A stretch of 64,000 bases of DNA from Parcubacteria bacterium GBS-2 (GCA_001443025.1 LEKP01000001.1:161889-225888); one strand, 5' to 3'; positions 3,289 through 52,776 are shown, counted from the stretch's first letter. Program-made: numbers and translations. The notes: generated by a model from the sequence alone, not told the origin.

Positions 3289-4336
3289 AACAACTCTTTG
3301 GCGTGGCATTGAACTCCTTTTTTCTTTTCAAAAGAGCTATTACTGATGGTAAATAGTGGATATAGGCTGCAAGTGGCGCAAGGATGATAAGAATAAATGT
3401 TCTTTTCAATGGTATTTTTAGGATCGCTGAGCCAATTCCAGTACAAATCATTGCTTGAATTATTGGAAATATTCCTATATACCCTTGTAAGATCATCAAG
3501 GGTAGGAGAATATAGATCGTCCCTGAGAGCAATTTGACAATTATAAAAGCCTTGATTTTCTTTTTGTGTAAGTATTTTAGATCGTTGATTACTCCTGATG
3601 CCCATCTCCACCGTTGTCTCAATAAATCTTTGATCCTAAGAGGCGCTTTAGTAATAATTTTCTCTCGGGAGAACTTATATCTATATTTCGCAGAGGTAGA
3701 AATAAGAGCGAAAGCGAAGGCATTATCTTCTGTGATACTCTCTCTGTTCCATGTGATTTGATCTTCTAGTCGTTTTGTGATGACAATTCCTCCTCCCCAA
3801 AGAGTGAGAGGAGATGTTTTCTCGTACAGTGAAAACTCAGGAATAGTCAGACCAATTCTAAAAGTTTCGATAGTCTCAATTATTAAGTTCTGTGCGATTG
3901 GTACTTCTTGGAATTGAATAATATCCGCGTCGGTCGGGATTTCTTTGAACTGTGGTAACGAATCTTCATCAAGAAATAATGTATACTCATTTTCTGGTGG
4001 TTGGTTAATTCTTGCCCATTCAAGGTCTCTTCCTTTCCACTTTGCCTCGCATTCAAATTCCTCTGGTACCACCTTTACGTTCGCTTCAGACAATTCTTGT
4101 ATTTTTCTTTTTGTAATGATCAAAGGATTTTTGTTGCAGTAATTTATGCAATGTTCTACTGTTTTCTTTAGAACTTCTACTTCTCTTCCAAGTGTCAAAA
4201 TTTTAATTGTAAAGTCTCTGGTAGTGCTAGTGTTCTTGTGTGTCTTCTGAGAGTGATGGTAGTAATAAAATAGAGCAATGTACCACCACACTGTCGTTAC
4301 AATCCAAGGGAAGAGGATCAACAACCCCCATTCCAT
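3287..4336 (-). CDS. Family-2 glycosyltransferase-like membrane protein
   Basis: DxD-like LFLDEDS and a Q(R/Q)xRW-type motif LRQRWRWASG are present, with N- and C-terminal TM helices. A strong SD GGAGGTGA lies at 4341-4348 (minus strand). Confidence 0.6.
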   Translation of the reverse strand: MEWGLLILFPWIVTTVWWYIALFYYYHHSQKTHKNTSTTRDFTIKILTLGREVEVLKKTVEHCINYCNKNPLIITKRKIQELSEANVKVVPEEFECEAKWKGRDLEWARINQPPENEYTLFLDEDSLPQFKEIPTDADIIQFQEVPIAQNLIIETIETFRIGLTIPEFSLYEKTSPLTLWGGGIVITKRLEDQITWNRESITEDNAFAFALISTSAKYRYKFSREKIITKAPLRIKDLLRQRWRWASGVINDLKYLHKKKIKAFIIVKLLSGTIYILLPLMILQGYIGIFPIIQAMICTGIGSAILKIPLKRTFILIILAPLAAYIHYLPSVIALLKRKKEFNATPKSC

Positions 4337-4419
4337 TCCCTCACCTCCTTTTGGTATATTATTTTAAAGTATACCATTAAATCAGGAAAATTTCAAGGCC
4401 AAAAAAAAATAATTAATCG

Positions 4420-5178: not shown

Positions 5179-6375
5179 AAGAGGGTCGGTTTCAAAAAGT
5201 TTTCCATCTTTTTTGAAATAAATTTTTTTGGTTTGAAAACTAAAAGATAAATCTTCTCCAGGAAGTTCTTTTAATTCATAAACATTAATTTTATCTCTTT
5301 TATCTGTTTCTAAGAGTTTAATTTTATTCTGAAAAATCAAAATTAGATAGTCTTCGTTGAACCAGTAGACTTTATCGATTTTTTCTGAGAATCTGTTTAA
5401 AAAATCGTTTTTTCCGTTTTCAAAGAGCCAGATTTCATAATCTGAAAAAATGGCAAGTTTTTTTGAGCCTGGAGATGGTTCAATTCCTTTAAGGTTTTCA
5501 AAAATTTTTTCAAATTGTGCGTCTTTTAAAAAATAAAGAGCTCCTTGAGTTTCTAAAAATACCCAATCATTAAATATTCGCAGTCTACAGTCTCCGATTA
5601 AGGAAAAAGGTTCGTTGTTTAATCTTCTTCCATTTTTTAAAAGGTATCCTGAATTTTCAAAAAAATATTCACTTTCTTCTATTTTTTTAAAACAAATTAC
5701 GTTTTCAGGAATAATTTCTTCCTCCTTTTCTCTAATTTGGGGTGGAATTTTTTTAAGATTTAAAAGAAAGTTTTTTATTTCTTCTTCAATTTTTAATTGA
5801 ATTTCAATTTGTTCTGAATTTTCATTAAAATTCAATCCTAAGAATTCAGTTTCTTTTTTAAAATCTTCTTCACTTAACAAATAAGATTTTATTTTTTTCT
5901 CAAGGGAATAAGATTTTAAAACCCATTGTTCTTCATTCTTTTCCTTTAAAATTAATTCTTTTCCGTTTGGCAAAATCCAAAATTGATCGATATCAGATAA
6001 AATTTGATAAAAATTTAAATTTTCTGGAAATAAAATTAGGTTCTTTACTTCAGTGACCTTTTCTTCTTCCACTTCTAGTTCCTTTTCCCATGGGAAATAC
6101 CCCTCTTTTGTAACTCTTACTTTATACTTCTTCGGTAAAAGATTGTCTATCAGCAGAGAGCCAAAAAAAGAATCAGTTCTTTTCTTAATTTTTCCATCAA
6201 TTGAAACCTCCACTTCCTTAGGTATTGCTTTAATAAAGATCCCCCCTGTTTTTGTTACTTTCCTTTTTTCAAAATCAAAGCGATAACCCAACGAGTAAAA
6301 GACCAAAATTGGTCCAAATATTAAAAATATCAAACACAAGGAAAAAAATAAAATTTTCCTTTGCCAATTTTTCAT
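5170..6375 (-). CDS. Membrane-anchored PEGA-domain protein
   Basis: N-terminal TM helix, then a PEGA-like segment (VEVSIDGKIKK...YKVRVTKEGYFPWEKELEV). The rest is unassigned. Confidence 0.45.
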   Translation of the reverse strand: MKNWQRKILFFSLCLIFLIFGPILVFYSLGYRFDFEKRKVTKTGGIFIKAIPKEVEVSIDGKIKKRTDSFFGSLLIDNLLPKKYKVRVTKEGYFPWEKELEVEEEKVTEVKNLILFPENLNFYQILSDIDQFWILPNGKELILKEKNEEQWVLKSYSLEKKIKSYLLSEEDFKKETEFLGLNFNENSEQIEIQLKIEEEIKNFLLNLKKIPPQIREKEEEIIPENVICFKKIEESEYFFENSGYLLKNGRRLNNEPFSLIGDCRLRIFNDWVFLETQGALYFLKDAQFEKIFENLKGIEPSPGSKKLAIFSDYEIWLFENGKNDFLNRFSEKIDKVYWFNEDYLILIFQNKIKLLETDKRDKINVYELKELPGEDLSFSFQTKKIYFKKDGKLFETDPLLR

Positions 6376-6393
6376 TTTTGTTATTTTATCAGA

Positions 6394-6422
6394 TTGATAA
6401 AAATTTTAAAATTTTCTAAAAT
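6394..6422 (+). promoter_or_regulatory. Sigma70-type promoter of mreB-1 (leaderless geometry)
   Basis: TTGATA (6394-6399), 17-nt spacer, TAAAAT (6417-6422), then 6 nt to ATG 6429. Confidence 0.55.
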
Positions 6423-6428
6423 AGATTT

Positions 6429-7436
6429 ATGATTATCAGAAAAATAGGAATTGATCTAGGAACTTGCAATACAATTGTATTTATCCCAAAAAAAGGCGTC
6501 GTTTTTAAGGAGCCTTCGGTAGTGGCTGTTTCAATTCCTGACAATAAAATTTTAGCAGTAGGACAATCCGCGAAAGAAATGCTCGGGAGAACACCAGATA
6601 CAATCAAAATTTACCGACCACTAAGAGAAGGAGTAATTGCTGATTTTAGAGTAACCTTGGCGATGATTAGGTATTTTTTAAAAAAGATTCTTGGTGTTCT
6701 TTCCTTTTTAAAGCCCGAAATTTTAATTGGAGTTCCAGCAGGAGCAACTTCTACGGAAAGAAGAGCTTTGATCGAGGCAGGACTTGGGGCAGGAGCTAAA
6801 GAAGTTTTTTTAGTAAAACAGCCAATTTTGGCAGCCTTGGGTGCAGGAATTCCGATTGAATCTTGTTCTGGAAACATGGTAGTTGATATTGGCGGAGGAA
6901 CTACCGAGGTAGCGGTTATCTCTTTGGGAGGAATTGTTACTTTCAATTCAATAAGAGTAGGAGGAGATAAATTAGATGTAGCAATTTCAGAGTATATAAA
7001 GAAAAAATATAATTTAGCCATTGGTGATCAAACCGCAGAAGAAATTAAAATAAAAATTGGTACTGCAATTTTCGAGAAGCAACCACTCGATTTGGAAATT
7101 AAAGGAAGAGATTTGGTTTCTGGTTTGCCTCGAAATATTAAAATTACTTCAAACGAAGTTTGCGAAGCAATCTCAGATGTACTTTCTGAAATAATACAAA
7201 TCATAAAAAAGACCCTAAGAGAAACTCCCGCAGAACTATCAGCAGATATAATGGAAAAAGGCCTTGTCTTAACAGGAGGGAGTTCATTATTAAGAAATCT
7301 TCCAGAATTTTTTGAAAAGTCGATTGGAGTTCCGGTGATTTTAGCAGAAGAGCCTTTATTTTGTGTTGCAAAAGGCACAGGTAAAATTTTAGAAAGTTTA
7401 GATCTTTATAAGAGGGTGTTGATGACTAAAAAATGA
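6429..7436 (+). CDS. mreB: Rod-shape/actin-like protein MreB (paralogue 1)
   Basis: IGIDLGTCNT, VVDIGGGTTEVAVISLGG and LTGGSSLLRNL match actin/MreB phosphate and adenosine motifs. Confidence 0.9.
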   Translation: MIIRKIGIDLGTCNTIVFIPKKGVVFKEPSVVAVSIPDNKILAVGQSAKEMLGRTPDTIKIYRPLREGVIADFRVTLAMIRYFLKKILGVLSFLKPEILIGVPAGATSTERRALIEAGLGAGAKEVFLVKQPILAALGAGIPIESCSGNMVVDIGGGTTEVAVISLGGIVTFNSIRVGGDKLDVAISEYIKKKYNLAIGDQTAEEIKIKIGTAIFEKQPLDLEIKGRDLVSGLPRNIKITSNEVCEAISDVLSEIIQIIKKTLRETPAELSADIMEKGLVLTGGSSLLRNLPEFFEKSIGVPVILAEEPLFCVAKGTGKILESLDLYKRVLMTKK

Positions 7437-8260
7437 TTTTAGGACACGAAAAACAAATTGAATTCTTGAGAAAAATTCTAAATTCTGGGAAAATTCCACA
7501 TGCATTTTTGTTCTGTGGGAAAGAGAGAATAGGAAAAAGAAAAGTTGCATTGGAATTTGTATCTTGGATTTTGGGTTCTTCCCCTGATAATCACCCAGAC
7601 TTCTTTTTTTTGGCACCTATCAAAGATCAGATTTCGGTTGAACAAATAAGAGAGTTAATTTGGAAAATTTCTTTGAGGCCGTTTAAATCAAGGTACAAAA
7701 CTGTAATTATTGATTCTGCTCATCGAATGACCTTGGAAGCTCAAAATGCTTTTTTGAAGACTTTAGAGGAACCGAAAGGCAACTCCATAATAATTTTAAT
7801 TGTTGAAAGCGAAAATTCGCTACTTTCGACAATTGTTTCAAGATGTCAAAAAATTAAATTTTTTAGTGTAAAAAAAGAAAAAATAAAGGAATTTTTACGC
7901 AAAAAAGGATTGGACGAAGAAAGAATTGAGAAAATATTGAAATTCGCTGAAGGAAGACCGGGAATGGCTATTGAACTTTTTGAAAACTCCAAAAGACTCG
8001 AGGCATTTGAAAAACTTGAAAAAGATTTGGTAAAAATAGGAGAGAGAGAAATTTTATTTAGATTTCAAAAGGCTAACGAACTTCTTCAAAATTTTAATCT
8101 TTTTGAAATTCTAGAAGTCCTGGCGAATCAGTTTAGAGCGAAAATTTTTGATAAAAAAGCGAGAGGATTTTTAAAAGAAATTCAAAAGATTTATTTTTCA
8201 GCTAAAATTTCAAACATCGATAAAAGGTTGGCCTTGGAAATACTATTTTTAAAATTATGA
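7433..8260 (+). CDS. holB: DNA polymerase III delta' subunit
   Basis: GHEKQIEFLRKILNSGKIPHAFLFCGKERIGK followed by AQNAFLKTLEEP and SRCQ, the clamp-loader AAA+ signature. Confidence 0.75.
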   Translation: MILGHEKQIEFLRKILNSGKIPHAFLFCGKERIGKRKVALEFVSWILGSSPDNHPDFFFLAPIKDQISVEQIRELIWKISLRPFKSRYKTVIIDSAHRMTLEAQNAFLKTLEEPKGNSIIILIVESENSLLSTIVSRCQKIKFFSVKKEKIKEFLRKKGLDEERIEKILKFAEGRPGMAIELFENSKRLEAFEKLEKDLVKIGEREILFRFQKANELLQNFNLFEILEVLANQFRAKIFDKKARGFLKEIQKIYFSAKISNIDKRLALEILFLKL

Positions 8261-8835
8261 AGGACCAAAAAGAAAAAATAGATTATCGGCAAATCATCGA
8301 AAAAGCAAAACCGGAAATGGAAAAGGCAGTAAAAACTTTTGAAGAGGAGCTAAAAGCCTTAAAGAGTTCGAGAGCTTCCTCAGAATTAATTGAAAATTTG
8401 CAGGTCGAATGTTTTGGTCAAAAATTTCCTTTAAGACAGTTGGGGCAAATTTCAATTCCTGGACCAAGACAAATTTTAATTTCACCTTGGGATTCTTCTT
8501 ACATTGAGCCGATAGTAAAAGCAATCGAAAAATCTAGTCTTGGTCTTACTCCGGTAGTAGATCAGAATTCGATCAAGATAAATTTACCTCCGGTAACTGA
8601 GGAATTCAAGAAAAATTTGTTAAGAATTCTATCTCAAAAGAAAGAAAGCGCTAAGAAGAAAGTAAGAGAAGCAAGGACTAAGGCATGGGATCAAATTCAA
8701 AAAGCATTTTTGGAGAAAAAACTTTCAGAAGATCAAAAGTATAAAGGAAAAGAAGAACTTCAAGATTTGGTGGAAGAGTTTAACGAAAAAATAGAAGAGG
8801 TTGCAAAAAGAAAAGAAAAAGAAATTTTGGAATAA
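8257..8835 (+). CDS. frr: Ribosome recycling factor
   Basis: 192 aa with RRF-like sequence (LKSSRASSELIENLQVECFG...PLRQLGQISIPGPRQILISPWD). Confidence 0.9.
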   Translation: MKDQKEKIDYRQIIEKAKPEMEKAVKTFEEELKALKSSRASSELIENLQVECFGQKFPLRQLGQISIPGPRQILISPWDSSYIEPIVKAIEKSSLGLTPVVDQNSIKINLPPVTEEFKKNLLRILSQKKESAKKKVREARTKAWDQIQKAFLEKKLSEDQKYKGKEELQDLVEEFNEKIEEVAKRKEKEILE

Positions 8836-8838
8836 ATT

Positions 8839-9903
8839 ATGCTTGATTTTCTTTTAGTTTTTCTTTCTTTAATTTTCTTGATAATATTGCACGAATTTGC
8901 CCATTTTTTAGCAGCGAAAAAATCTGGAGTGTTGGTTGAAGAATTTGGAATTGGCTATCCACCTCGAATCTTCGGAAAGAAAATTGGAAGCACACTATAC
9001 TCAATCAACCTTTTACCTTTTGGCGCATTTGTAAAATTAGAAGGAGAAATAGGAAATAAAGGTTTTTCTGCCCAACCTCTTTCAAGAAGGATAATCATTG
9101 TTTTAGCAGGAGTAATTTCTTTTTGGGTAATTTCATGTCTTATTTTTATCTTTCTTTTCAAGTTTGGAATACCAGTTGCCATTCCTGATGAAGAAATTTC
9201 TAAAACTGCAAAAATTCAAATCATTGAAATAGCAAAAAACTCTCCAGCTCAGACTGCTGGTTTGATGGCCGGAGATGTAATCAAAGAAGTAAAGATTCAA
9301 AACTTAAAATTTGAGATTAAAAAAGTAAGTGAATTTCAAGAACTAGTTCAAAAATACAAAGGAGAAAAAATGATTTTAACAATAGAAAGAGGAAAAGAAA
9401 ATCTTGAGCTAGAGGTGGTTCCAAGGACTAATCCTCCAAAAGGAGAAGGGCCGATTGGAATAGTATTGGTAAGGGTTGATATTAAAAAATATCCTTTTTT
9501 TGAATCAATTTTTGAAGGAGTAAAAATGACCATTAATTTGACCTTCCAGATCATCAAAGGATATTTTTTAGTCGTTAAAAATATACTTGAAGGTGTTTCT
9601 CCTCAAGTAGAGTTAGCTGGACCAGTAGGTATTTTCAATATAATGTATCAAACGTCGAAAGTAGGAGTAATTTATTTTTTTAATCTTTTGGCAACTATTT
9701 CTATTTATTTGGCAATTTTCAACCTTCTTCCAATTCCGGGATTGGACGGCGGAAAACTCGTTTTTTTATTAATTGAAGGAATAAGAAAGAAAGCCATTTC
9801 TCAAGAAACTGAAAATAAAATTACCGCTTTCTTTTTTGGACTTTTAATAATTTTGATAATCTTGGTTACAATAAAGGATATTAGCAAAATTTTAAATCAA
9901 TGA
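8839..9903 (+). CDS. rseP: Site-2 (M50) membrane metalloprotease, RseP-like, one PDZ
   Basis: HEFAHFLAAK (HExxH), a PDZ-like NSPAQTAGLMAGDVI segment, and C-terminal NLLPIPGLDGG. Confidence 0.85.
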   Translation: MLDFLLVFLSLIFLIILHEFAHFLAAKKSGVLVEEFGIGYPPRIFGKKIGSTLYSINLLPFGAFVKLEGEIGNKGFSAQPLSRRIIIVLAGVISFWVISCLIFIFLFKFGIPVAIPDEEISKTAKIQIIEIAKNSPAQTAGLMAGDVIKEVKIQNLKFEIKKVSEFQELVQKYKGEKMILTIERGKENLELEVVPRTNPPKGEGPIGIVLVRVDIKKYPFFESIFEGVKMTINLTFQIIKGYFLVVKNILEGVSPQVELAGPVGIFNIMYQTSKVGVIYFFNLLATISIYLAIFNLLPIPGLDGGKLVFLLIEGIRKKAISQETENKITAFFFGLLIILIILVTIKDISKILNQ

Positions 9904-11150
9904 GGCAATCCTTACTTTTTTCACGGACTCAAAGGAAATTTCCACAAAACGAGACTTTTATTAATACAAAACTTTTAATCAGAGCTGGTTTCATAGATAA
10001 ACTTTCTGCGGGAGTTTTTAATTTTTTACCTTTAGGTTTCCGGGTCTTAAAAAAAATTGAAAAAATTATTAGAGAAGAAATGGAAAAAATTGGAGGACAG
10101 GAAATTTTAATGCCTGCTTTGCATCCAAAAGAGAATTGGCAGACAACCGGCAGGTGGGATGAAGTAAAAGAACTCTTTAAATTAAAAGCTGGAAAGAAAG
10201 AATTTGTTCTAGGGCCCACCCATGAAGAGATCATTACTCCTTTAGCCAAAAAAATTATTAAAAGTTATAAAGACTTACCCTTGTACATTTTCCAAATCCA
10301 AGAAAAATTTAGGAATGAAAAGAGAGCAAAATCAGGTCTTTTAAGGCAAAGAGAATTTTTAATGAAAGACCTGTACTCTTTTCACACAAGTAAGGAAGAT
10401 TTAGATTCTTTTTATGAAAAAGTGAAGGAGGCATATTTCAAAATTTTTGAAAGGGTTGAAATTCGAGAAAAAACTTATTTAACCTTTGCCTCGGGAGGTA
10501 CTTTTTCAAAATTTTCTCACGAGTTCCAAACTGAATGTTCGGCGGGGGAAGATACAATTTTTGTTTGCAAAAATTGTAAGCAAGCAATAAATAAAGAAAT
10601 AAAAAACAAAATAAGAAATTGTCCAAATTGCAACGGAGGTTCTTTCGAACAAAAAAAGGCGATTGAGGTGGGGAACATTTTCAAGCTTGGCGAAAAATTT
10701 TCAAAACCTTTCAAACTTACTTTTTTAGATAAAGATGGTAAGGAAAAATTTGTTCAGATGGGATGTTATGGGATTGGGTTAGGAAGATTAATGGCGACAG
10801 TTGTTGAGATTTTTCACGATCAAAAAGGAATAATTTGGCCGAAAGAAATTTCTCCCTTCCAGGTTCATTTAATTCCTCTAGGAAAAGAAAAGAGAATTAA
10901 AGAGACAGCAGAAAGGATTTATAATGAATTAATAAAGGAAAAAATTGAAGTCTTGTATGATGACAGAGAAAAAACGCCGGGCGAAAAATTCGTTGATTGC
11001 GATTTAATTGGAATTTCTCTACGAATGGTTTTATCTGAAAAGACTTTAGATAAAAAAAGCGTTGAATTTAAAGAAAGGAAGACAGGAAATTTGAAGTTAG
11101 TTAAAATTCCAAAGGCGATAGATTTTATAAAAAATTTCTATGCTCAATAA
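9900..11150 (+). CDS. proS: Prolyl-tRNA synthetase (short form without large INS editing domain)
   Basis: RAGFIDKLSAGVFNFLPLG plus class II motifs (FRNEKRAKSGLLRQREFLMKD, GCYGIGLGRL). 416 aa. Confidence 0.9.
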   Translation: MRQSLLFSRTQRKFPQNETFINTKLLIRAGFIDKLSAGVFNFLPLGFRVLKKIEKIIREEMEKIGGQEILMPALHPKENWQTTGRWDEVKELFKLKAGKKEFVLGPTHEEIITPLAKKIIKSYKDLPLYIFQIQEKFRNEKRAKSGLLRQREFLMKDLYSFHTSKEDLDSFYEKVKEAYFKIFERVEIREKTYLTFASGGTFSKFSHEFQTECSAGEDTIFVCKNCKQAINKEIKNKIRNCPNCNGGSFEQKKAIEVGNIFKLGEKFSKPFKLTFLDKDGKEKFVQMGCYGIGLGRLMATVVEIFHDQKGIIWPKEISPFQVHLIPLGKEKRIKETAERIYNELIKEKIEVLYDDREKTPGEKFVDCDLIGISLRMVLSEKTLDKKSVEFKERKTGNLKLVKIPKAIDFIKNFYAQ

Positions 11151-12183
11151 GATTTTAAATTTTCTTTCAGAAGACATTGCCATAGATTTAGGCACAGCAA
11201 ACACTGAAGTTTATGTTAGAGGGAGAGGGATTGTCATTCAAGAACCGTCAGTTGTGGCTATTAATCAAAAGACAGGTCAAATTTTAGCAGTAGGGATTGA
11301 GGCAAAAAAAATGGTGGGAAGAACTCCCTCTCATATTGTGGCAATAAGACCTTTAAAGTCTGGAGTGATTTCAGATTTCGAAACAACAGAACAAATGCTC
11401 AAGTACTTTATTGAAAAGGCAAGAAAAAGAAAATTTGTAGGTCCGAGAGTAATAGTGGGAATTCCTTGGGGAGTTACTGAAGTTGAAAAAAAAGCTGTTT
11501 TGGATGCATCAAAATCAGCGGGAGCTAGGGAGGTATTTCTAATCGAAGAACCAATGGCGGCAGCGATTGGTGCTAGATTACCTGTTCAAGAGCCAGTGGG
11601 AAACTTTATCGTTGATATTGGCGGAGGAACTGCTGAAGTTGCTGTGATTTCTTTGGGGGGTGTGGTTCTAGGGAAAAGTTTAAGAATTGCTGGAGATAAA
11701 CTCAACGAGGATATTATTCGATATATTCAAGATGAATATAACTTACTGATTGGCGAGAGAATGGCAGAAACAGTTAAAATTGCAATAGGGTCTGCCTATC
11801 CTTTAAAGGAAAAAAAAGAATTTCCAGTTAGGGGAAGAAATTTGGTTACTGGACTTCCAGAAGAAATTATAGTTTCCGATGAAGAAATAAGAAAAGCAAT
11901 AGAAAAATCAGTTAGACAAATTGTGAACGAAATAAAAGCAACGCTAGATGAAACTCCACCTGAATTAGTTGCAGATATTATGGTTAACGGAATTTATCTT
12001 TCTGGAGGAGGAGCTTTACTCAAAGGGTTAGATATTTTGATCCAAAAAGAAACCAAAATCCCTACAAAAGTAGTAGACGATCCAATGACCGCAGTAGTAA
12101 GAGGGGCGGGAATTGTTTTGGAAAACTTGGATGAATTAGAAGAAGTTTTAGTTGAAACCAAAGAACTGAAACCGCCCAAATAA
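11140..12183 (+). CDS. mreB: MreB paralogue 2
   Basis: IAIDLGTANT, IVDIGGGTAEVAVISLGG and LSGGGALLKGL. About half the residues look identical to paralogue 1 by eye. Confidence 0.9.
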   Translation: MLNKILNFLSEDIAIDLGTANTEVYVRGRGIVIQEPSVVAINQKTGQILAVGIEAKKMVGRTPSHIVAIRPLKSGVISDFETTEQMLKYFIEKARKRKFVGPRVIVGIPWGVTEVEKKAVLDASKSAGAREVFLIEEPMAAAIGARLPVQEPVGNFIVDIGGGTAEVAVISLGGVVLGKSLRIAGDKLNEDIIRYIQDEYNLLIGERMAETVKIAIGSAYPLKEKKEFPVRGRNLVTGLPEEIIVSDEEIRKAIEKSVRQIVNEIKATLDETPPELVADIMVNGIYLSGGGALLKGLDILIQKETKIPTKVVDDPMTAVVRGAGIVLENLDELEEVLVETKELKPPK

Positions 12184-14473: not shown

Positions 14474-14545
14474 AGCGGGGTAGAGGAGTAGTACCTCGCC
14501 AGCCTCATAAGCTGGAGATCGCTGGTGCAAGTCCAGCCCCCGCAA
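14474..14545 (+). tRNA. tRNA-Met(CAU), initiator-like
   Basis: Hand-folded cloverleaf. The acceptor AGCGGGG/CCCCGCA-A has a 1:72 mismatch and otherwise matches the E. coli tRNA-fMet acceptor. A11:U24 is present and the anticodon loop is CUCAUAA. The GGG:CCC anticodon-stem signature is absent. Confidence 0.7.
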
Positions 14546-14564
14546 CAATAATAGCGAATTAGCG

Positions 14565-14969
14565 AATTAGTTGATGAGTTTATGAGTGAAGAGTTTTTCT
14601 TTGAAAAGTTAGAGGTCTATTAGAGGAGTTTGAGGTTTGCAATTAAACTTTGTAAATTGGCAAGCAGTTTCCCAATAAAGTTTTCAAGAATAAGAGATCA
14701 ATTGATAGGAGCAGCGATTTCAATTCCCCTAAATATTGCTGAAGGATCGGGCAGAAAATCACAAAAAGAGAAGATAAATTTTTATAAAATAAGTAGGACT
14801 TCTTTATTCGAATGCATTCCGATTCTTGAAATTTGTTTAAGTCTAAAATTAATAGACGGGAAGGAATATGAAGAATTAAGAAAAGAAGATTTAGAACTTT
14901 CAAAAATGATTAACGGCTTAATAAAATCCCTTTAATCTACTCATCAACTAATTCACTCATCAACTAATT
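14565..14969. repeat. Inverted repeats bounding the four-helix-bundle gene cassette
   Basis: AATTAGTTGATGAGT at 14565-14579 has two perfect inverted copies, ACTCATCAACTAATT at 14939-14953 and 14955-14969. Confidence 0.8.
14582..14935 (+). pseudogene. Four-helix-bundle protein ('23S rRNA intervening-sequence protein' family) with in-frame TAG
   Basis: ATG at 14582 gives MSEEFFFEKLEVY, then TAG (14621-14623), then in frame RSLRFAIKLCKLASSFP...IPLNIAEGSGRKSQKEKINFYKISRTSLFE. This is the family pattern FEKLEVYQ...NIAEG.GR. Confidence 0.75.
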
Positions 14970-14979
14970 ACTAAATAAC

Positions 14980-15051
14980 GTCGGGGTAGCTCAATGGCTA
15001 GAGCGCTGCTCTCATAAGGCAGAGATGTGGGTTCAATCCCCACCCCCGACA
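14980..15051 (+). tRNA. tRNA with CAU anticodon, elongator type (Met or lysidine-modified Ile2)
   Basis: Cloverleaf with acceptor GTCGGGG/CCCCGAC, D arm GCTC-AATGGCTA-GAGC, anticodon loop CTCATAA and T arm GTGGG-TTCAATC-CCCAC. C11:G24 is elongator-like. Confidence 0.75.
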
Positions 15052-16023: not shown

Positions 16024-16044
16024 AGATAATTTACAATTTGCCAA

Positions 16045-16076
16045 AGCGGTGCTATATTAAAAAATGGCACCGTTTT
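16045..16076 (+). terminator. Possible terminator after KH copy 2
   Basis: CGGTGC/GCACCG stem with a 14-nt loop, followed by TTTTGGTTTT. Confidence 0.35.
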
Positions 16077-20793: not shown

Positions 20794-21930
20794 TCAGCGG
20801 TGGCTGAGATTTTTGAGCACATCCACAACGAATTCAACAATTTCTTCTAATGGAATTCGCGTCGTTGGTACATCGGGCGCAGTCAAAGAACCGTTTAGTA
20901 TAAGTCGTCCCCCTTTTTCCCCAACGAACATGTACCATTCTGGTACCTTCTCGATTTTTCCTGGTTTTTTCAAATCGTTTTTCCTTTGAGGTAACTTCCT
21001 CGTGGAGTCGAGGGAAATTTCCCGAAGCCGGAGCAGTGCTATTAAATCTTCAGAAATCTTTTCTACCCGGGAACCGAGAATTTTATTGTTAAAGAATATC
21101 TGCACGTGTCCATCCAGGTTTTTCTGTATAATTATTGCCGCCCCCTTTTCTCTTGCTACTACGTTAAATTTTGGATTGTTGGAAATACCAGCCACTATAA
21201 AGTATCTGCCAATTCTGATTCTTTGCGCTTTTTCTACCTCTTCTTTTGCTTTTTCGTACTTTTGAATGTCTGCCGCAATGAATTTCAGTACTTCCCTTGC
21301 CACTTCCGGGTCTACCGTAGCTAACTCTGCAAAATCACAGACTCTATGGAAATTGGGATTTTGAAGTAACTGATAGTAATGACGGACTCTTTTTGGCATT
21401 TTTGTTTCATCCTCAAAGAACTCCCTGATAAGTTCAGCAGCTTTTTGATTATTTCTTTTGAGTCTGCTTCGGTGGAACTCGATAATTCCAGTGGCTATTT
21501 TAATTCCAAATTCCATAATTTTCTCATCGTCATCGATTTCTCTTGCTATACTTTTAGTCATATCGTTGAGATCGAAAGGTTCACTCCTTCCCTCAAGATC
21601 CGCCCTTCGTACATGAGCAAGGATAGGTCGAAGCCACTTTTCCTCAGCTATCCCTAATTCTTCCGCTACAATCTGGGCACTGGTCTTCCCTTTGAGTCCA
21701 TGGTGATCGAACATTTGACGTCCCCGATCAATCCAGAGAACATTTTTGAAATTAATTTGAGGAGATAAAGTTTCATCCCCTTCTCCGCTAAACCAGTACT
21801 TTTGGATCTTTGCTCCATACATTTTCAGTAAGGCCACTGAAACTATACTATCTTCATCTGGCTTTCGATGCGTTGCAATAATTATTGGTCTGTCAAGCCA
21901 CCACTTTTTATCTTTATTCTTTTCCACCAA
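20794..21930 (-). CDS. DHH/MYG1-like metal-dependent phosphoesterase-like protein
   Basis: IIATHRKPDEDSIVSVALL (DxD-type motif I) and DRGRQMFDHHG (DHH). G+C is about 45% in sampled lines. TTG start with SD GGAGGTGA 6 nt upstream. Confidence 0.4.
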   Translation of the reverse strand: MVEKNKDKKWWLDRPIIIATHRKPDEDSIVSVALLKMYGAKIQKYWFSGEGDETLSPQINFKNVLWIDRGRQMFDHHGLKGKTSAQIVAEELGIAEEKWLRPILAHVRRADLEGRSEPFDLNDMTKSIAREIDDDEKIMEFGIKIATGIIEFHRSRLKRNNQKAAELIREFFEDETKMPKRVRHYYQLLQNPNFHRVCDFAELATVDPEVAREVLKFIAADIQKYEKAKEEVEKAQRIRIGRYFIVAGISNNPKFNVVAREKGAAIIIQKNLDGHVQIFFNNKILGSRVEKISEDLIALLRLREISLDSTRKLPQRKNDLKKPGKIEKVPEWYMFVGEKGGRLILNGSLTAPDVPTTRIPLEEIVEFVVDVLKNLSHR

Positions 21931-21934
21931 CTCA

Positions 21935-21985
21935 GGTCACCTCCAAACTATCTACCAAAGTCTGATAGGCAATTTGGAGGTGACC
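21935..21985 (-). promoter_or_regulatory. SD-sequestering hairpin in the 5' leader
   Basis: GGTCACCTCCAAA (21935-21947) and TTTGGAGGTGACC (21973-21985) are perfect 13-bp complements with a 25-nt loop. On the mRNA the 3' arm contains the SD GGAGGTGA. Confidence 0.65.
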
Positions 21986-22085
21986 TAGATTCCCTCTATG
22001 AGATTTTTTTGATTTTAAAGAACAAAATATTTCCTAAGCCATCTGGTAAAATGAAAGATATTTTGTTTTCACTTTGTAATTTATT

Positions 22086-22245: not shown

Positions 22246-23148
22246 TCACTGAAATAGAAAGTATCCGATAATTAAGACTAAAAGAAAAAGCAAAATCAAA
22301 ATTGATTTTGGATTTTTTAAGAAAACTAAAACTTCTTTCATCAAAGGTAAAAAAACTGCAGAAAAAGAAAATGGCTTTAATTTTTTGGTGTCGGTTTTTA
22401 AAAATGGAGAAAAAATTTCTTTCAGGGAAAATTCTTTGAAAGTCTTTGCAGAAATAATTTCTTTTTTCTGTTTCGAAATTTCTTTTGAAAGAGAAACAAA
22501 AAAGGCAATACCCTTAACTTTGGAAAGTTTTTCTCTTTTTCCGTCTAATATTCTTTTGAAATCTTTATCTGTAAAACACTCTAGTTCTCTCAACTGCTGA
22601 ATTAAATTTTCATTTTGAAAAAATTCGAAAACTTCTTTCATCAAAACTAAAATTAGATCACCTTCAATTAAATTACCGCTTACTACGCTACCAAAAATCT
22701 TTAATGGATAAGGTTCAATATCCTGAAGTCTCAGTCTTTTATCAATGTCTATTATTTTTCTTCCTCTTATTAGCAGAATTTTCATTTCTCCAACTTTCGT
22801 GAAATTCAATTCAAAGTTTTTTAAGTTTAAAACTGCAAATGATAAGTTTCCTAACCATGAAACATCTCCGCTTTTTGCAATTCTTCCTAAAAATTCGTTT
22901 GTCTCTTTTAAGGTTTCCTTTAAGGCCTTTTCAGGTTTTGAAAGCGTTTTTTTATAAAATACCTCTTTGATAAATTCCGCAATTTTTTCTAAAAAATTGT
23001 GACTTTTTGGTAAAGCATTTTTTAAGGCCCCAATCAAATAAAGAGAACCTAACCTCTTTTCGTAAATGTTTTGCGGTTCAAAACAAAAACTATCAAAAAT
23101 TAAATCCTCCTTTGCTTTTGGATTGAAATAAAATTGGAAGATCCTCAT
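22246..23148 (-). CDS. Hypothetical C-terminally membrane-anchored protein (weak PP2C/SpoIIE-like fold suspicion only)
   Basis: 300 aa with one C-terminal TM helix. No catalytic motifs were recognised. Confidence 0.35.
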   Translation of the reverse strand: MRIFQFYFNPKAKEDLIFDSFCFEPQNIYEKRLGSLYLIGALKNALPKSHNFLEKIAEFIKEVFYKKTLSKPEKALKETLKETNEFLGRIAKSGDVSWLGNLSFAVLNLKNFELNFTKVGEMKILLIRGRKIIDIDKRLRLQDIEPYPLKIFGSVVSGNLIEGDLILVLMKEVFEFFQNENLIQQLRELECFTDKDFKRILDGKREKLSKVKGIAFFVSLSKEISKQKKEIISAKTFKEFSLKEIFSPFLKTDTKKLKPFSFSAVFLPLMKEVLVFLKNPKSILILLFLLVLIIGYFLFQ

Positions 23149-23153
23149 TTATC

Positions 23154-23182
23154 TTGACTTTAAATTAAAATTTTTGTAAAAT
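23154..23182 (+). promoter_or_regulatory. Promoter of the CAP-sortase operon (leaderless geometry)
   Basis: TTGACT, 17 nt, TAAAAT (23177-23182), then 6 nt to ATG 23189. Confidence 0.55.
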
Positions 23183-23188
23183 AAAATA

Positions 23189-24199
23189 ATGAATATTTTA
23201 CGCTTTTTTAAAAAAACTTTCTTTCCTTGCGTCGAAAACAATTACTTCCCTTTATTTTTAAAAGAAAAATTTTTGAATCTTTATTTAATTTTATTACTAA
23301 TTTTAAAAATTTTCACCATACCTTTAATTTTTTCGATTTCAAAAACAGTATTTTTCGCTGACATTCACAAGCCAACTTTAATTAATTTTCTGAATTTCGA
23401 AAGAAAAATAAGAGGATTACCTCCTCTCTCCGAAAACCCACTTTTGAACCAATCTGCCTATTTAAAAGCAAAAGATATCTTAGAAAAGGATTATTTTTCT
23501 CATTTTAGCCCAGAGGGCATTTCTCCTTGGTATTGGTTTAAATTAACAGGTTATGAATATCAATTTGCGGGGGAAAATTTAGCGATTGGATTTTTAGACT
23601 CAAAAGAAGTCCATGAAGCCTGGATGTCTTCTCCTTCACATCGACAAAACATTTTAAATCCAAATTATAAAGAAATTGGAATTGCAGTTTTAAAAGGAGA
23701 ATTCAACGGAAGCGAAGTCTACGTTGTTGTCCAACATTTCGGAAGCCCAAAAGTCGTTTTAGCAGAAGATAAAGAAAAATTCACTCAAAACCAAACTTCT
23801 ATACCAATTTCCACTCCAACTGAAACAAACATCAAAATTCAACCTTCTACGTCTACAGAGGGTACCACCTCTATTGGAAACACTTCAACTTTTGCTTTAA
23901 CTGAGAAAGAACAAATTTCACCCTCCCAGAAAATTACTTTCAATTTGGTAAAATTTTTAGCCCTTAGATACACCTCAATATTGAACGTCATTATTTATTT
24001 TACTCTAGCTATTTTAATTTTCTCTTTGAGTTTAACAATTTTTTGCGACATTTTCATCTATCGAAAATTCGTAATCGATTACAAAGAATTAATCCCAAGA
24101 TGGGTAAGTTTTTGTTTAATTCTTATCCTTTTTCTCTACCTCGATCAATCAAAACTTATTCAAATCATTCCTCACAAACTCATAATTCATGGATTCTAA
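23189..24199 (+). CDS. CAP/SCP (PR-1, YkwD-like) domain membrane protein
   Basis: YLKAKDILEKDYFSHFSPEG...GENLAIGF...EVHEAWMSSPSHRQNILNPNYKEIGIAV, followed by a Ser/Thr-rich linker and C-terminal TM helices. Confidence 0.75.
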   Translation: MNILRFFKKTFFPCVENNYFPLFLKEKFLNLYLILLLILKIFTIPLIFSISKTVFFADIHKPTLINFLNFERKIRGLPPLSENPLLNQSAYLKAKDILEKDYFSHFSPEGISPWYWFKLTGYEYQFAGENLAIGFLDSKEVHEAWMSSPSHRQNILNPNYKEIGIAVLKGEFNGSEVYVVVQHFGSPKVVLAEDKEKFTQNQTSIPISTPTETNIKIQPSTSTEGTTSIGNTSTFALTEKEQISPSQKITFNLVKFLALRYTSILNVIIYFTLAILIFSLSLTIFCDIFIYRKFVIDYKELIPRWVSFCLILILFLYLDQSKLIQIIPHKLIIHGF

Positions 24200-24909: not shown

Positions 24910-24938
24910 TTGACAAATTTTTTGGCATATTATAAAAT
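24910..24938 (+). promoter_or_regulatory. Promoter of the collagen-like gene
   Basis: TTGACA (24910-24915), 17 nt, TAAAAT (24933-24938). This is followed by SD GGAGGTGA (24945-24952) and TTG 24958. Confidence 0.6.
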
Positions 24939-24957
24939 TAAGACGGAGGTGACGAGG

Positions 24958-25821
24958 TTGAAAGAAATGGAGGGTTGGAGAGAAATTTTAAAGGGTAAAA
25001 CCAAGGAAGAAGCAAGGAACTTCCTGATGGAAGAGCGAAAGAGATTTCGACTATCAAATGAAGACATAGAAAATATTCTGAGAAGTCTCGAAGAACAACC
25101 TGCAACGCAGGAAAAAGAAGACATAGAAAATATTCTGAGAAGTCCCGAGGAACAACCTGTCGAATTTCAGGGACCTCCTGGAGAAAGAGGCCCAGAAGGA
25201 TCCCAAGGTCCTCCAGGTTCCCAAGGACCCCAAGGCCCGCCTGGACCTGGAGGAAGGGTTCCTCGGTGGATAGGAGCAATTTGCATTACAGCGGTTCTCA
25301 TTGCAATTATTGCGTTAGCCGTTGCTTTGGTGTACCACCCTGTATCCACTGATTTTCAACAATCCTTGGAGGTTCAGAATTCGCGACTTCAGGGACTACA
25401 GAGACTCATTGAAACTCAAGAGAAAATTATTGCTGATTTACAAACACAGATTGCCCAGCTAAAAAACAACCTTACATTATTACAACAGAAACTTGAGAAA
25501 CCTAATGAGGATCATGTACAAGAGGAAATACGAAAATTGCAGGAGCAGCCTAGCAAATTACAAGAAGAGTTGAATAGAATCGTAAACACTGATTTCGAAA
25601 GCGTAAACAGGTACATCAGGAAAACTCCGCTAGGATGGGACCCTAGGCAAATGGCCCAGGACCTCGAGGAGAAGTTCTGGGTCGAGACGAAGATAGTGAC
25701 AAGAGAGAATGTGCAGTATCTCTTCCTGCGTTTCAAGTGCCACTGCACAATAACACAGGAATGGTGGTGGGTGACCTATAAAGGGTTACTTCCTACCAGC
25801 GAAGCACCAGTTCAACCATAG
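24958..25821 (+). CDS. Collagen-like (GXY)9 / TM / coiled-coil protein
   Basis: GPPGERGPEGSQGPPGSQGPQGPPGPGG (about 25171-25254), TM helix WIGAICITAVLIAIIALAVALVY, then heptad-rich LQGLQRLIETQEKIIADLQTQIAQLKNNLTLLQQKLEK. The start was moved from the track TTG 24883 to 24958 because the promoter and SD lie inside the track ORF. Confidence 0.6.
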   Translation: MKEMEGWREILKGKTKEEARNFLMEERKRFRLSNEDIENILRSLEEQPATQEKEDIENILRSPEEQPVEFQGPPGERGPEGSQGPPGSQGPQGPPGPGGRVPRWIGAICITAVLIAIIALAVALVYHPVSTDFQQSLEVQNSRLQGLQRLIETQEKIIADLQTQIAQLKNNLTLLQQKLEKPNEDHVQEEIRKLQEQPSKLQEELNRIVNTDFESVNRYIRKTPLGWDPRQMAQDLEEKFWVETKIVTRENVQYLFLRFKCHCTITQEWWWVTYKGLLPTSEAPVQP

Positions 25822-25920: not shown

Positions 25921-25949
25921 TTGACAAACAGATTTAAAAGTGTTAAAAT
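25921..25949 (+). promoter_or_regulatory. Promoter of the Cys-rich repeat gene (leaderless geometry)
   Basis: TTGACA, 17 nt, TAAAAT (25944-25949), then 8 nt to ATG 25958. Confidence 0.6.
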
Positions 25950-25957
25950 TTTTTATC

Positions 25958-26698
25958 ATGAAGAATAATATAAAAGTTTTGATAATTCTTCTGATTTCCA
26001 TCTTTTGGGGACTACTTTTGATTTTCCATTTTCAAAAAACAGTTTCAGCTGCTACTTGCGGAAACGGAGTTTGCGAATCAGGAGAAACTTGTTCAAATTG
26101 CAGTATAGATTGTGGAAGTTGTGGTCCTACTTGTGGAAATGGGATTTGTGAATCAGGAGAAACTTGTAGTAATTGTTCTATAGATTGTGGTTCTTGCGGA
26201 CCAACTTGCGGAAACGGAGTTTGCGAATCAGGAGAAACTTGTTCAAATTGCAGTATAGATTGTGGAAGTTGTGGTCCTACTTGTGGAAATGGGATTTGTG
26301 AATCAGGAGAAGTAAACATATGCTGCAGTGATTGTCCTCCAACATGTGGAAACGGAGTTTGCGAATCAAATTGCGGAGAAAGTGCTTCAAATTGCTGTTT
26401 AGATTGTTATGTAGAACATTATCAAAAGAAATGCTATGACAACGATGTTTATTGGTACGATTGTAATGGTCAAAGAAAAGATAAATACCAAGAGTGTGGA
26501 ACTTCTGGTTGGACAGATGAATATCGATGTGCGGGAAATTGGGTTCAAAGAAAGTATATAAACAGAGGTTGTTCAAATGCACAATGTTATGCAACGGAAG
26601 AATGGAAGGATTATCAGTATTGCTCAAATTACTGCCTAAATGGAAAATGTGTTTTTCCTCCAACAGTGATAACTAAAGGAGCGGTGGTGACATATTAA
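25958..26698 (+). CDS. Secreted Cys-rich repeat protein (TCGNGxCESGETCSNCSIDCGSCGP x4-5) ending in VITKGAVVTY
   Basis: Signal/TM peptide MKNNIKVLIILLISIFWGLLLIF, 25-aa Cys repeats, a Cys/aromatic-rich domain and the conserved C-terminal decapeptide. Confidence 0.7.
   Translation: MKNNIKVLIILLISIFWGLLLIFHFQKTVSAATCGNGVCESGETCSNCSIDCGSCGPTCGNGICESGETCSNCSIDCGSCGPTCGNGVCESGETCSNCSIDCGSCGPTCGNGICESGEVNICCSDCPPTCGNGVCESNCGESASNCCLDCYVEHYQKKCYDNDVYWYDCNGQRKDKYQECGTSGWTDEYRCAGNWVQRKYINRGCSNAQCYATEEWKDYQYCSNYCLNGKCVFPPTVITKGAVVTY
26054..26311 (+). repeat. 150-bp-period tandem duplication inside the Cys-rich gene
   Basis: 26054-26161 is identical to 26204-26311 (108 nt, checked by hand). The units are 75-bp A and B modules. 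Confidence 0.85.
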
Positions 26699-26749
26699 AG
26701 GTCGAAGAAGTAATAAACAAAAAGCAATAAAACAACGAGCAATAAAAAT

Positions 26750-27415
26750 ATGAAAATTAGAAATTTAGCCTTATTAACCCTGGTGGCTACTGTTTTAGCA
26801 ATGACAACGCCAATTCAAAATGTTTTGGCAGTTAGCGCTACCTTATACGGAGAGGTGACTGATGATGGAGGAGACCCAAATCTATATGTGTGGTTCCAGT
26901 ACGGAAAGACGACTCTTTATGGTTATGAGACACCAAAACAAACCAAATATGGAACGGGAGAGTTTTCAGCAACTATTACTGGTTTGGAAATGTGTACTAC
27001 CTATCATTATCGAGCAGTTGTTAAACATGTAAATTACGACGATACTAAGTACGGAGAAGACAAATCATTTACTACTGAATGTCCAGTATCGGTTGATCTC
27101 AAGGCTAATGGTTATGATGGCCCGATTACCGTATCTTATAAAAACAGAACGATCACTTTTTCTTGGACTTCGCAGTACGCCGATACTTGCACTGCTGAAA
27201 CAATTAATAAACCTTCAAACAGTAGCGTTAATTGGTCAGGAACGAAATCCACATCTGGAAATGAATCAGTGACTTTAGATAAAGCTGGTTCCTATACTTT
27301 CAAGTTGACTTGTAAAAATAACACAAGCAATAACACAAAATACGATACTGTTCAAGTAACAGTTGAACAACCGACTTTAGGTGTGATCACAAAGGGCGCG
27401 GTTGTTACTTACTGA
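26750..27415 (+). CDS. Secreted two-domain (FN3-like 'YG.T' + Ig-like) protein ending in VITKGAVVTY
   Basis: Signal peptide, then LYGEVTDDGGDPNLYVWFQYGKTTLYGYETP...CTTYHYRAVV, a second beta domain and the C-terminal decapeptide. Confidence 0.65.
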   Translation: MKIRNLALLTLVATVLAMTTPIQNVLAVSATLYGEVTDDGGDPNLYVWFQYGKTTLYGYETPKQTKYGTGEFSATITGLEMCTTYHYRAVVKHVNYDDTKYGEDKSFTTECPVSVDLKANGYDGPITVSYKNRTITFSWTSQYADTCTAETINKPSNSSVNWSGTKSTSGNESVTLDKAGSYTFKLTCKNNTSNNTKYDTVQVTVEQPTLGVITKGAVVTY

Positions 27416-27447: not shown

Positions 27448-27476
27448 TTGACAATTTTTTTTATTTTTGATAAAAT
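27448..27476 (+). promoter_or_regulatory. Promoter (leaderless geometry)
   Basis: TTGACA, 17 nt, TAAAAT (27471-27476), then 8 nt to ATG 27485. Confidence 0.6.
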
Positions 27477-27484
27477 AAAAATAT

Positions 27485-28111
27485 ATGAAAACAAAAGCTA
27501 AAAAAATTATATTTTATTTAATAATGACTGCCTCAATGATTACTATTGGGGCAGGAGCGCTCGCACAAACTTGTCCTGAAAAAACAACTGTTAATGGCCC
27601 AACTAGCATTACTTTTGTTGGAGGAATTACTGATTTGGGAGGGGACACTCAGGCATATGTTTGGTTTGAATATGGAACTTCTTCTGGAAATTATACATTT
27701 AAAACGGAGAAAAAAATCGTAACTCAACTTGGAAAATATTGCATCACAGTTAATAATTTACAACCTTGCACAACCTATTACTATCGTGCTGCAATGGAAA
27801 ATAAAGCAGGTCCAAGTTATGGCGCAGAGTTGACGAAAACTACTCCTTGTACTGGACAAACTACTTCTTCTGGTCAGGTTTTAGGCATTGCTACTGCTCA
27901 ACCTACTGGATTAATAAAAACCATTTTCTCTGATTTTTTGCTTTTTCCCTTATTGATTGCTTCATTTTTACTTTTCGTTTTTAAATCTCACATTTTAAAA
28001 TGGGAAGAGTGGTTAGATGAGAGAAAGAAAGAGTATCAAAAATTCAAAAGCGAAAAACTTTTGAGGCTAAAAGTTTCCCAAATAAAGCTCAAGGAAAAGT
28101 TAAAAATTTAA
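27485..28111 (+). CDS. Surface protein: FN3-like domain + xPTG motif + TM + conserved KSHILKWEEWLD cytoplasmic tail
   Basis: Signal peptide, YVWFEYGTSSGNYTF...CTTYYYRAAM, QVLGIATAQPTGL, a hydrophobic helix and a basic helical tail. Confidence 0.65.
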   Translation: MKTKAKKIIFYLIMTASMITIGAGALAQTCPEKTTVNGPTSITFVGGITDLGGDTQAYVWFEYGTSSGNYTFKTEKKIVTQLGKYCITVNNLQPCTTYYYRAAMENKAGPSYGAELTKTTPCTGQTTSSGQVLGIATAQPTGLIKTIFSDFLLFPLLIASFLLFVFKSHILKWEEWLDERKKEYQKFKSEKLLRLKVSQIKLKEKLKI

Positions 28112-29529: not shown

Positions 29530-29559
29530 CATTTTTTATTCTGTGATAAACTAAAATTG

Positions 29560-33332: not shown

Positions 33333-33338
33333 TATTTC

Positions 33339-33361
33339 ATTATAGAAAAATCTGATATAAT
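33339..33361. promoter_or_regulatory. Back-to-back divergent -10 boxes in a 35-bp intergenic region
   Basis: Minus strand: TATAAT (33339-33344) lies 6 nt from the ATG at 33332. Plus strand: TGaTATAAT (33353-33361) lies 6 nt from the ATG at 33368. Confidence 0.5.
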
Positions 33362-33367
33362 CAAAAA

Positions 33368-34850: not shown

Positions 34851-34942
34851 TCTAATATTTGCACATTTGTACAATTAATCAAATGTGAAAATATCAAAAA
34901 ATAGAATGAAGAGCAATAAAACAGCGAGCAACAATTAAAAAT

Positions 34943-38764: not shown

Positions 38765-38794
38765 TTGACAATCTTTTTTGTTTTCCTGTATTTT
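38765..38794 (+). promoter_or_regulatory. Promoter of greA (leaderless geometry)
   Basis: TTGACA (38765-38770), 18 nt, TATTTT (38789-38794), then 7 nt to ATG 38802. Confidence 0.45.
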
Positions 38795-38801
38795 AAAAAT
38801 T

Positions 38802-46176: not shown

Positions 46177-46205
46177 AGGTCGAAAATTTAAAAAAATAAA
46201 AAATT

Positions 46206-52766: not shown

Positions 52767-52776
52767 CTAATTAAGA

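Follow-up and report, generated by a model that had tools for sequence, protein, structure and literature searches.

Promoters abutting start codons in a 64-kb segment of Parcubacteria bacterium GBS-2 and the probable leaderless or near-leaderless heads of about a third of its transcription units

Where does an mRNA begin when its promoter lies almost against the start codon? The question is raised by a stretch of DNA of 64,000 nucleotides from Parcubacteria bacterium GBS-2 (GCA_001443025.1, LEKP01000001.1:161889-225888; the whole stretch is termed the window, and positions are counted from its first letter). In the window the -10 box of a near-consensus promoter repeatedly ends a few nucleotides before the ATG of the first gene of an operon. 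An earlier note on this DNA quoted 11 such sites and proposed that leaderless mRNAs are the default here; every string that it quoted is present where it was placed. The present analysis of the sequence makes it quite probable that leaderless or near-leaderless mRNAs, transcribed from sigma-70-type promoters, head about a third of the transcription units.

The window has a G+C content (GC) of 30%-36% and is densely coding, with the plus strand dominant. It carries five tRNA genes; no rRNA genes are found in the 64 kb. Genes were called with a simple open reading frame (ORF) caller, the start being the first ATG of each long ORF, a choice blind to promoters. The genes were classed as 36 operon-leading and 37 operon-internal. 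The term d denotes the number of nucleotides between the end of the -10 box and the start codon. A blind scan of the gene starts recovers all 11 quoted examples and adds two weaker candidates, gene 22246-23148 and the gene that begins at 49284. The promoters abutting start codons are:

6394-6431, plus strand: head of the mreB-1 operon; TTGATA (6394-6399), 17 nt, TAAAAT (6417-6422), AGATTT (6 nt), ATG at 6429.
6373-6410, minus strand: head of a PEGA-domain gene; -35-like TTTAAA (6410-6405), extended -10 TGATAAAAT (6391-6383), 7 nt, ATG (6375-6373).
23154-23191, plus strand: head of a CAP-domain operon; TTGACT-17-TAAAAT-6-ATG, in a divergent spacer of 40 bp.
23146-23162, minus strand: gene 22246-23148, a weaker candidate from the blind scan; TAAAGT (23162-23157), 8 nt, ATG (23148-23146).
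25921-25960, plus strand: gene of a Cys-rich repeat protein; TTGACA-17-(TGt)TAAAAT-8-ATG, ATG at 25958.
27448-27487, plus strand: surface protein operon; TTGACA-17-(TGa)TAAAAT-8-ATG, ATG at 27485.
29544-29562, plus strand: amino-acid-kinase (IPK-like) gene; TGATAAACT-7-ATG, ATG at 29560, without a -35 box.
Within 33330-33370, minus strand: DRG/TGS GTPase gene; TATAAT (33344-33339), 6 nt, ATG.
Within 33330-33370, plus strand: metallo-beta-lactamase operon; TGATATAAT (33353-33361), 6 nt, ATG at 33368.
38765-38804, plus strand: greA; TTGACA-18-TATTTT-7-ATG, ATG at 38802.
49249-49286, plus strand: gene 49284, a weaker candidate added by the blind scan; TTGTGT-17-TAATAT-6-ATG, ATG at 49284.
52738-52779, plus strand: Fur-family gene; TTGACA-17-TAAAAT-10-ATG, ATG at 52777.
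62234-62273, plus strand: Fic gene; TTGGTT-17-(TGa)TAAAAT-8-ATG, ATG at 62271.

The distance d is 6-7 at mreB-1, CAP, metallo-beta-lactamase, DRG, 49284, PEGA, IPK and greA, 8 at the Cys-rich, surface-protein, Fic and 22246 genes, and 10 at Fur. All 13 candidates start with ATG, and the 6-10 nt before it are A/T-rich and without a Shine-Dalgarno (SD) sequence. In their sequence the sites fit the definition of a sigma-70-type promoter, i.e. a -35 and a -10 box at 16-18 bp with an optional TGn. A perfect TTGACA at 17-18 bp is found at five boxes, four of them in the leaderless-type arrangement (TAAAAT at three of these, TATTTT at greA) and one leadered (24910). Two further sites have a -35 box with one mismatch, and the TG extension occurs at six sites.

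Stringent composite patterns exceed shuffled sequence 5- to 50-fold. The pattern TTGACA-N16-18-TAWWWT-N6-10-ATG has 4 matches in the window versus 0.08 expected; none of 100 shuffles reaches 4, and all 4 matches head real genes. TGnTAWAHT-N6-8-ATG has 6 matches versus 1.2 expected, and 6/6 are at real gene starts. Control patterns with a gap of 16-18 nt gave 0 and 9 matches versus 1.1 and 9.8 expected. Intergenic promoter matches with no more than one mismatch have an ATG at 6-10 nt in five cases (6394, 23154, 25921, 27448 and 52738); of the remaining ones, 14404 is the promoter of a tRNA, and 24910, 55644 and 15660 are leadered. A lax consensus scan yields 62 promoter-like sites versus 54.7 in shuffles. 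Such a scan is uninformative in AT-rich DNA, and stringent and position-anchored tests were therefore used instead.

The -10 box at 6-8 nt is specific to operon-leading genes. TA[AT]AAT at d = 6-8 precedes 8/36 leading genes (binomial P = 2.7e-4 with positions 0-29 as reference) and 1/37 internal genes. For the looser TAnnnT the numbers are 14/36 versus 3/37, and a TG-extended -10 box at this distance precedes seven leading genes versus 0/37 internal ones.

Three of the intergenic regions between divergent genes are only 35, 40 and 53 bp long, and the -35 box of each promoter lies inside the other promoter or in the first codons of the other gene. The mreB-1 and PEGA promoters are interdigitated inside the 53-bp spacer, the TAAAGT candidate of gene 22246-23148 overlaps the -35 box of the CAP promoter, and the DRG and metallo-beta-lactamase -10 boxes stand back-to-back in the 35-bp region. 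These spacers have no room for leaders and are hard to reconcile with leadered transcripts. It also follows from the interdigitation that the divergent pairs would compete for RNA polymerase.

The distances depend on correct start codons. The chosen ATGs are credible, in that they agree with Pfam domain boundaries and with the N-termini of orthologs. Pfam profile alignments begin at residue 5 in MreB (MreB_Mbl, residues 5-327 versus profile positions 3-325), residue 3 in the amino-acid kinase, residue 9 in the metallo-beta-lactamase, residue 5 in GreA (GreA_GreB_N) and residue 8 in Fur. Residue 1 of the query is where the alignment begins for the MreB of relatives (72/80) and for most PEGA orthologs. 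Gene calls in public assemblies, which were made independently, have the same starts.

A mechanism can be proposed from these observations. About a third of the transcription units would be headed by a sigma-70-type promoter of the housekeeping kind (TTGACA and TAAAAT with a 17-bp spacer, frequently with a TG extension), in which the -10 hexamer ends 6-8 nt, in a few cases 10-12 nt, upstream of the first gene's ATG. A distance of 7 bp from the -10 box to the transcription start site (TSS) is general across 49 bacterial species (PMC12641261). By analogy RNA polymerase would start about 7 nt past the -10 box here as well, and the TSS positions and the mode of translation given below are deduced from that distance. 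With a d of 6-7 the ATG begins at nucleotide 7 or 8 past the -10 box, and thus the mRNA should begin with AUG. A d of 8-12 would leave a leader of about 0-5 nt (3-4 nt would be expected for Fur). Such a short 5′ end has no room for a ribosome-binding site; translation would proceed by direct binding of the ribosome and initiator tRNA to the 5′-terminal AUG, which is the known leaderless pathway. Downstream genes, almost without SD sequences and largely overlapping or abutting the preceding stop codon, would be translated by termination-reinitiation or by initiation that needs no SD and takes place on A-rich sequence. Leaders of 20-30 nt, some with a strong GGAGGTGA SD, would be kept by a minority of first genes.

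How general is this arrangement within the window? It is found at about 13/36 leading genes, roughly 10 above the chance expectation. When promoters were ranked by an ad hoc promoter score, 15 leading genes scored high; eight of these have d = 6-8, two have d = 10-12 (Fur and gene 54427) and five have d = 28-34. Leaderless-type heads thus make up about 28%-39% of the candidate transcription units and just over half of the confidently recognised promoters. Three leadered counter-examples are:

4334-4396, minus strand: glycosyltransferase gene; TTGAAA-17-(TG)TATACT, a 31-nt leader with GGAGGTGA, ATG (4336-4334).
24910-24960, plus strand: gene starting at TTG 24958; a perfect TTGACA-17-TAAAAT, GGAGGTGA at 24945-24952.
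55644-55704, plus strand: gene starting at ATG 55702; TTGACA-16-TAAACT, 30 nt, ATG.

The tRNA and ribosomal protein operons are also leadered, and the rplJL leader is long and structured. A strong, well placed GGAGGTGA SD occurs at three genes (ATG 4336 and TTG 21930 on the minus strand, TTG 24958 on the plus strand), and two of the three begin with TTG, versus ATG in all of the leaderless candidates. Leaderless heads are therefore frequent, as had been proposed, but to call them the default is too strong in view of the five promoters at 28-34 nt and the three genes with an SD. The accompanying proposal, that near-consensus promoters place the TSS at or near the AUG, is supported by the -10 position restricted to leading genes, its co-occurrence with -35 boxes and TG extensions, the 35-53 bp spacers, ATGs backed by homology, and conservation (below); the sites with d = 8-12 may give leaders of 1-5 nt.

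For one of the three GGAGGTGA-led genes (20794-21930, minus strand; SD at 21944, start TTG 21930), no promoter was identified. Upstream of it, at 21933-21987 on the minus strand, is a hairpin, about 24 bp long and nearly perfect (-37.9 kcal/mol, z = -6.3; 0/200 shuffles as stable). Its 3′ arm holds the GGAGGTGA SD, 6 nt before the TTG, and no T-run follows it; the hairpin therefore looks like a regulatory element that sequesters the SD rather than a terminator. Another hairpin bears on a rejected candidate: a high-scoring promoter-like site upstream of trmD (16030-16058, TTTACA-17-TATATT) is probably spurious, as on visual inspection it appears to sit in the loop of a hairpin (cggtgc...gcaccgtttt, to 16087) that resembles a terminator of the upstream gene. 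A similar hairpin-forming sequence is present upstream of trmD at two related loci (L010 and L028).

The earlier note had also stated that none of its genes has an SD. This holds true, yet it does not set these genes apart, since an SD core is found in only about 5%-6% of all genes of the window. At positions -18 to -4 SD cores precede 6% of leading and 5% of internal genes, and only four strong, correctly placed SDs occur in the 64 kb. In relatives the figures are 12% for leading and 4% for internal genes, versus 6% and 14% in the control zone; upstream of operon-internal genes SD motifs are thus depleted. A-rich sequence precedes nearly all starts, operon-internal ones included. Among same-strand neighbour pairs 29/71 overlap, 14 of them as ATGA, which suggests translational coupling of downstream cistrons, and the clade appears to be SD-poor with extensive stop-start coupling. 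The 3′ end of 16S rRNA, sought in the window and in all the related loci for a reading of the anti-SD, is absent from them. As some leaders do carry a strong GGAGGTGA SD, the anti-SD is probably intact and selectively used, to judge solely from those three sites.

Is the arrangement found in other genomes? The MreB protein encoded at 6429-7436 has unchanged copies on contigs of nine metagenome samples. Assemblies that contain the organism are JGI 3300005298, 3300020139 and 3300005278 and ENA ERZ27289263, ERZ650669 and ERZ27245891, together with those of runs SRR4027954, SRR7067823 and SRR7539411. Conspecific strain variants (L001-L009) share at least 99.5% identity and an unchanged promoter region, and therefore give no information on promoter constraint. 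The closest genomic relatives by MreB have 57%-79% identity and are all metagenome-assembled genomes (MAGs) from Patescibacteria/candidate phyla radiation (CPR) lineages, labelled Staskawicz-, Nealson-, Wildermuth- and Yanofskybacteria, Parcubacteria and Minisyncoccia. The organism, whose genome is small, is by this evidence an uncultured CPR bacterium of the Parcubacteria/Paceibacteria type. The comparison set consisted of 80 loci around mreB from related Patescibacteria genomes, 1.29 Mb in total.

In this set, counting from promoters, the first ATGs of long ORFs peak at d = 6-9 (30, 18, 15 and 11) versus about 5 elsewhere. Counting from starts, TGnTAnnnT, scored before 616 leading genes, is most frequent at d = 6 (25) and d = 7 (15) versus about 1.5 per position, and the peak persists when the PEGA orthologs are removed (19 and 11, respectively). 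A -35 box with no more than two mismatches accompanies TA[AT]AAT in 56% of cases at d = 6-8 versus 29% elsewhere. Before internal genes of the relatives TA[AT]AAT is slightly in excess at d = 6-8, with no enrichment of -35 boxes (19% versus a background of 20%); the TAA stop codon of the preceding gene is suspected as its source.

The PEGA family, to which the minus-strand gene of the finding belongs, allows the most direct test. In 24 of 47 PEGA orthologs, with amino acid identities of 24%-42%, TGnTAnnnT stands 6-12 nt from the ATG (d = 6 in seven, 7 in four, 8 in one, 9 in six, 10 in three, 11 in one and 12 in two); elsewhere within 25 nt it occurs in only 2. The bases between the -10 box and the ATG differ among these orthologs. 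In the closest relative (L010) mreB keeps TTGAAA-17-TAAAAT-7-ATG, and the ortholog of gene 22246-23148 has TTGTCA-16-TATAAT-8-ATG. Conservation is thus seen at the level of the clade and of the PEGA family, and not for each example.

With regard to mreB itself, the window has two MreB paralogs (6429-7436 and 11140-12183) in one operon with holB, frr, rseP and proS (6429-12183). In this species mreB-1 is placed beside the PEGA gene, with a new abutting promoter.

A number of observations weigh against leaderless heads or limit their reach. A recognisable promoter was not found for about 20/36 leading genes, so that the true leaderless fraction is uncertain. The gene calls rest on a simple ORF caller. 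The -35 boxes are poor at IPK, DRG, metallo-beta-lactamase, 22246 and 49284, and the IPK-like gene, whose head sits 14 nt past tRNA-Val, could be co-transcribed with that tRNA. The Cys-rich, surface-protein, Fic and Fur sites (taken as the d = 8-12 class) may have short leaders and not be strictly leaderless. In most relatives mreB closely trails another gene (putatively murA, from its C-terminal translation) and has no promoter of its own, and greA is not arranged in this manner in distant relatives. The only CPR set of TSSs cited, that of Nanosynbacter lyticus, was derived from plain RNA-seq, in which the mapping is imprecise, and displays an unusually variable distance from the -10 box to the TSS (PMC12641261).

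One alternative accepts the promoters as real and gives the transcripts short leaders of 1-6 nt, the AUG lying close to the 5′ end behind a tiny untranslated tail. Several sites of the window at d = 8 and one at d = 10, a second cluster of PEGA orthologs at d = 9-10 and the canonical start at the 7th nucleotide past the -10 box are in its favor. However, among the relatives d = 6-7 is the commonest class, and at this distance the sites of the window have the A of their ATG as nucleotide 7 or 8. RNA polymerase favours purine starts, and within the T-rich stretches at d = 8 the nearest purine is the A of the ATG at two sites. As a general account this alternative is unlikely, and it would refine the leaderless or near-leaderless interpretation, not contradict it. 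It is a much smaller chance, and a very slim one, that TAAAAT at 6-8 nt is an A/T-rich non-SD ribosome-binding or translation-enhancer signal resembling that of GeneMarkS-2 group B, with the true promoters further upstream. The SD-poor genome, with A-rich sequence before nearly all starts, would suit such a signal, as would the small excess of TA[AT]AAT before internal genes of relatives, but that excess comes without a -35 box. In the window the motif is found at only 1/37 internal genes and its extended form at none; it goes together with the TG extension and with TTGACA spaced by exactly 17 bp, and the divergent regions of 35-53 bp have no room for other promoters.

Mis-assigned start codons, with the true starts downstream, the ATG beside the promoter a coincidence and the apparent coding sequence serving as leader, are improbable to an even greater degree. 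The Cys-rich, surface-protein and 49284 genes lack an informative N-terminal domain, which would allow for this, whereas the Pfam alignments from residues 3-9, the orthologs that align from residue 1 with a shared N-terminal length, and the agreement of the public gene calls all stand against it. Finally, chance in a genome of 32% GC, together with selective quoting in the earlier note, would find some support in the lax scan, which gave little more than shuffled sequence, and in TAWAAT-N6-8-ATG, which alone is just 2-fold enriched. The stringent composites far above shuffles, the blind profiles that peak at d = 6-8 in leading genes only, and the same peak across 80 independent genomes refute it, and its probability is next to nil. 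Leaderless or near-leaderless transcription from sigma-70-type promoters is thus retained as the probable explanation.

A wider proposal is more doubtful. In CPR bacteria of the Parcubacteria/Paceibacteria type, SD initiation might be almost abandoned even though the anti-SD is kept; first cistrons would be mainly leaderless or near-leaderless, downstream cistrons would be reached by stop-start coupling or SD-independent initiation, and regulation of a special kind would apply to the few genes led by GGAGGTGA, one of which has a hairpin that would sequester the SD. This is possible but tentative. If true, it would provide a low-GC, phylum-scale bacterial lineage with archaea-like initiation, perhaps tied to a reduced ribosome and fewer biogenesis factors.

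Other features were seen in the window. The Cys-rich gene (25958-26698) has no Pfam match, and positions 26052-26311 consist of 3.5 tandem copies of a 75-nt (25-residue) repeat with 78% identity. The GTPase at 32412-33332 (minus strand) shows MMR_HSR1 and a C-terminal TGS domain with a weak match to MMR_HSR1_Xtn, a DRG/Rbg-like architecture, which is more typical for archaea and eukaryotes. A near-identical A/C-rich leader of about 30 nt, GAGCAATAAAACA(A/G)CGAGCAA..TAAAAATATG, is found at 26719-26752 and 34911-34945 before the unrelated genes 26750-27415 and 34943-36085, and a similar CAA-rich stretch is present upstream of mreB in one relative (L029). Possible roles are those of an unstructured leader that enhances translation or of a regulatory site. 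Two exact copies of the 14-mer TAAAGGTCGAAAAT are present (46174-46187 and 54380-54393), and near copies (1-2 mismatches) lie at 15312, 20305, 26696 and 53428. The copies are mostly at or just past the 3′ ends of genes, and enrichment at three or fewer mismatches is marginal (38 versus 26 expected). A small ORF (14630-14935) between two tRNA-Met genes (14474-15051) is annotated publicly in the 23S rRNA intervening-sequence protein family (PF05635).

Full-text searches within a limited collection of papers turned up none that links leaderless transcription or the use of SD sequences with Patescibacteria/CPR. Gene-start and operon prediction in CPR MAGs rests on the initiation signal that is assumed. 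With a leaderless, SD-poor model the annotation of gene starts and promoters would change for these genomes, which represent a very large and mostly uncultured part of the bacterial tree. It makes a concrete prediction that is cheap to check in metatranscriptomes: 5′ ends at the ATG of the genes named above. It would add a low-GC lineage with a reduced ribosome to the bacteria that rely on leaderless initiation, which bears on whether such initiation is ancestral or a recurrent product of compaction, and the interdigitated promoters in spacers of 35-53 bp show how far compaction has gone.

The closest known parallel is GeneMarkS-2 group C, in which the first genes of operons have a Pribnow box 6-8 nt from their start and 25%-50% of operons are predicted to be leaderless; it is typical of Actinobacteria (Mycobacterium tuberculosis, Streptomyces) and Deinococcus-Thermus (PMC6028130). 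The window shares the 6-8 nt spacing, the restriction to first genes, the ATG starts and the proportion of leading genes (about 28%-39%), a likeness seen in the DNA, with the TSSs deduced. Unlike group C as known, the lineage here is Patescibacteria/CPR with about 32% GC, and the -10 box is TAAAAT, often TG-extended and with a full TTGACA -35 box, whereas mycobacteria typically have a bare TANNNT. The other genes of group C are expected to use an SD, but only about 5% do so here. In group B (Bacteroidetes/FCB) the same motif precedes first and internal genes and is therefore not a promoter (PMC6028130). The very low SD use and the A-rich sequence upstream of most starts, internal ones included, resemble that group, but for TAAAAT a group B reading is discarded, since this motif is specific to leading genes and comes with a -35 box. 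Archaeal group D (Haloferax, Sulfolobus) has a TATA box about 26 nt upstream that is read by TBP/TFB (PMC6028130). It is similar in having many operons with a fixed short distance from promoter to start, small compact genomes and coupled internal genes; here, in contrast, the elements are the -35 and -10 boxes of a bacterial sigma-70 promoter, with the -10 box about 7 nt upstream. In sequence the arrangement thus matches a known architecture, that of the group C type, in a new lineage, this group of CPR bacteria.

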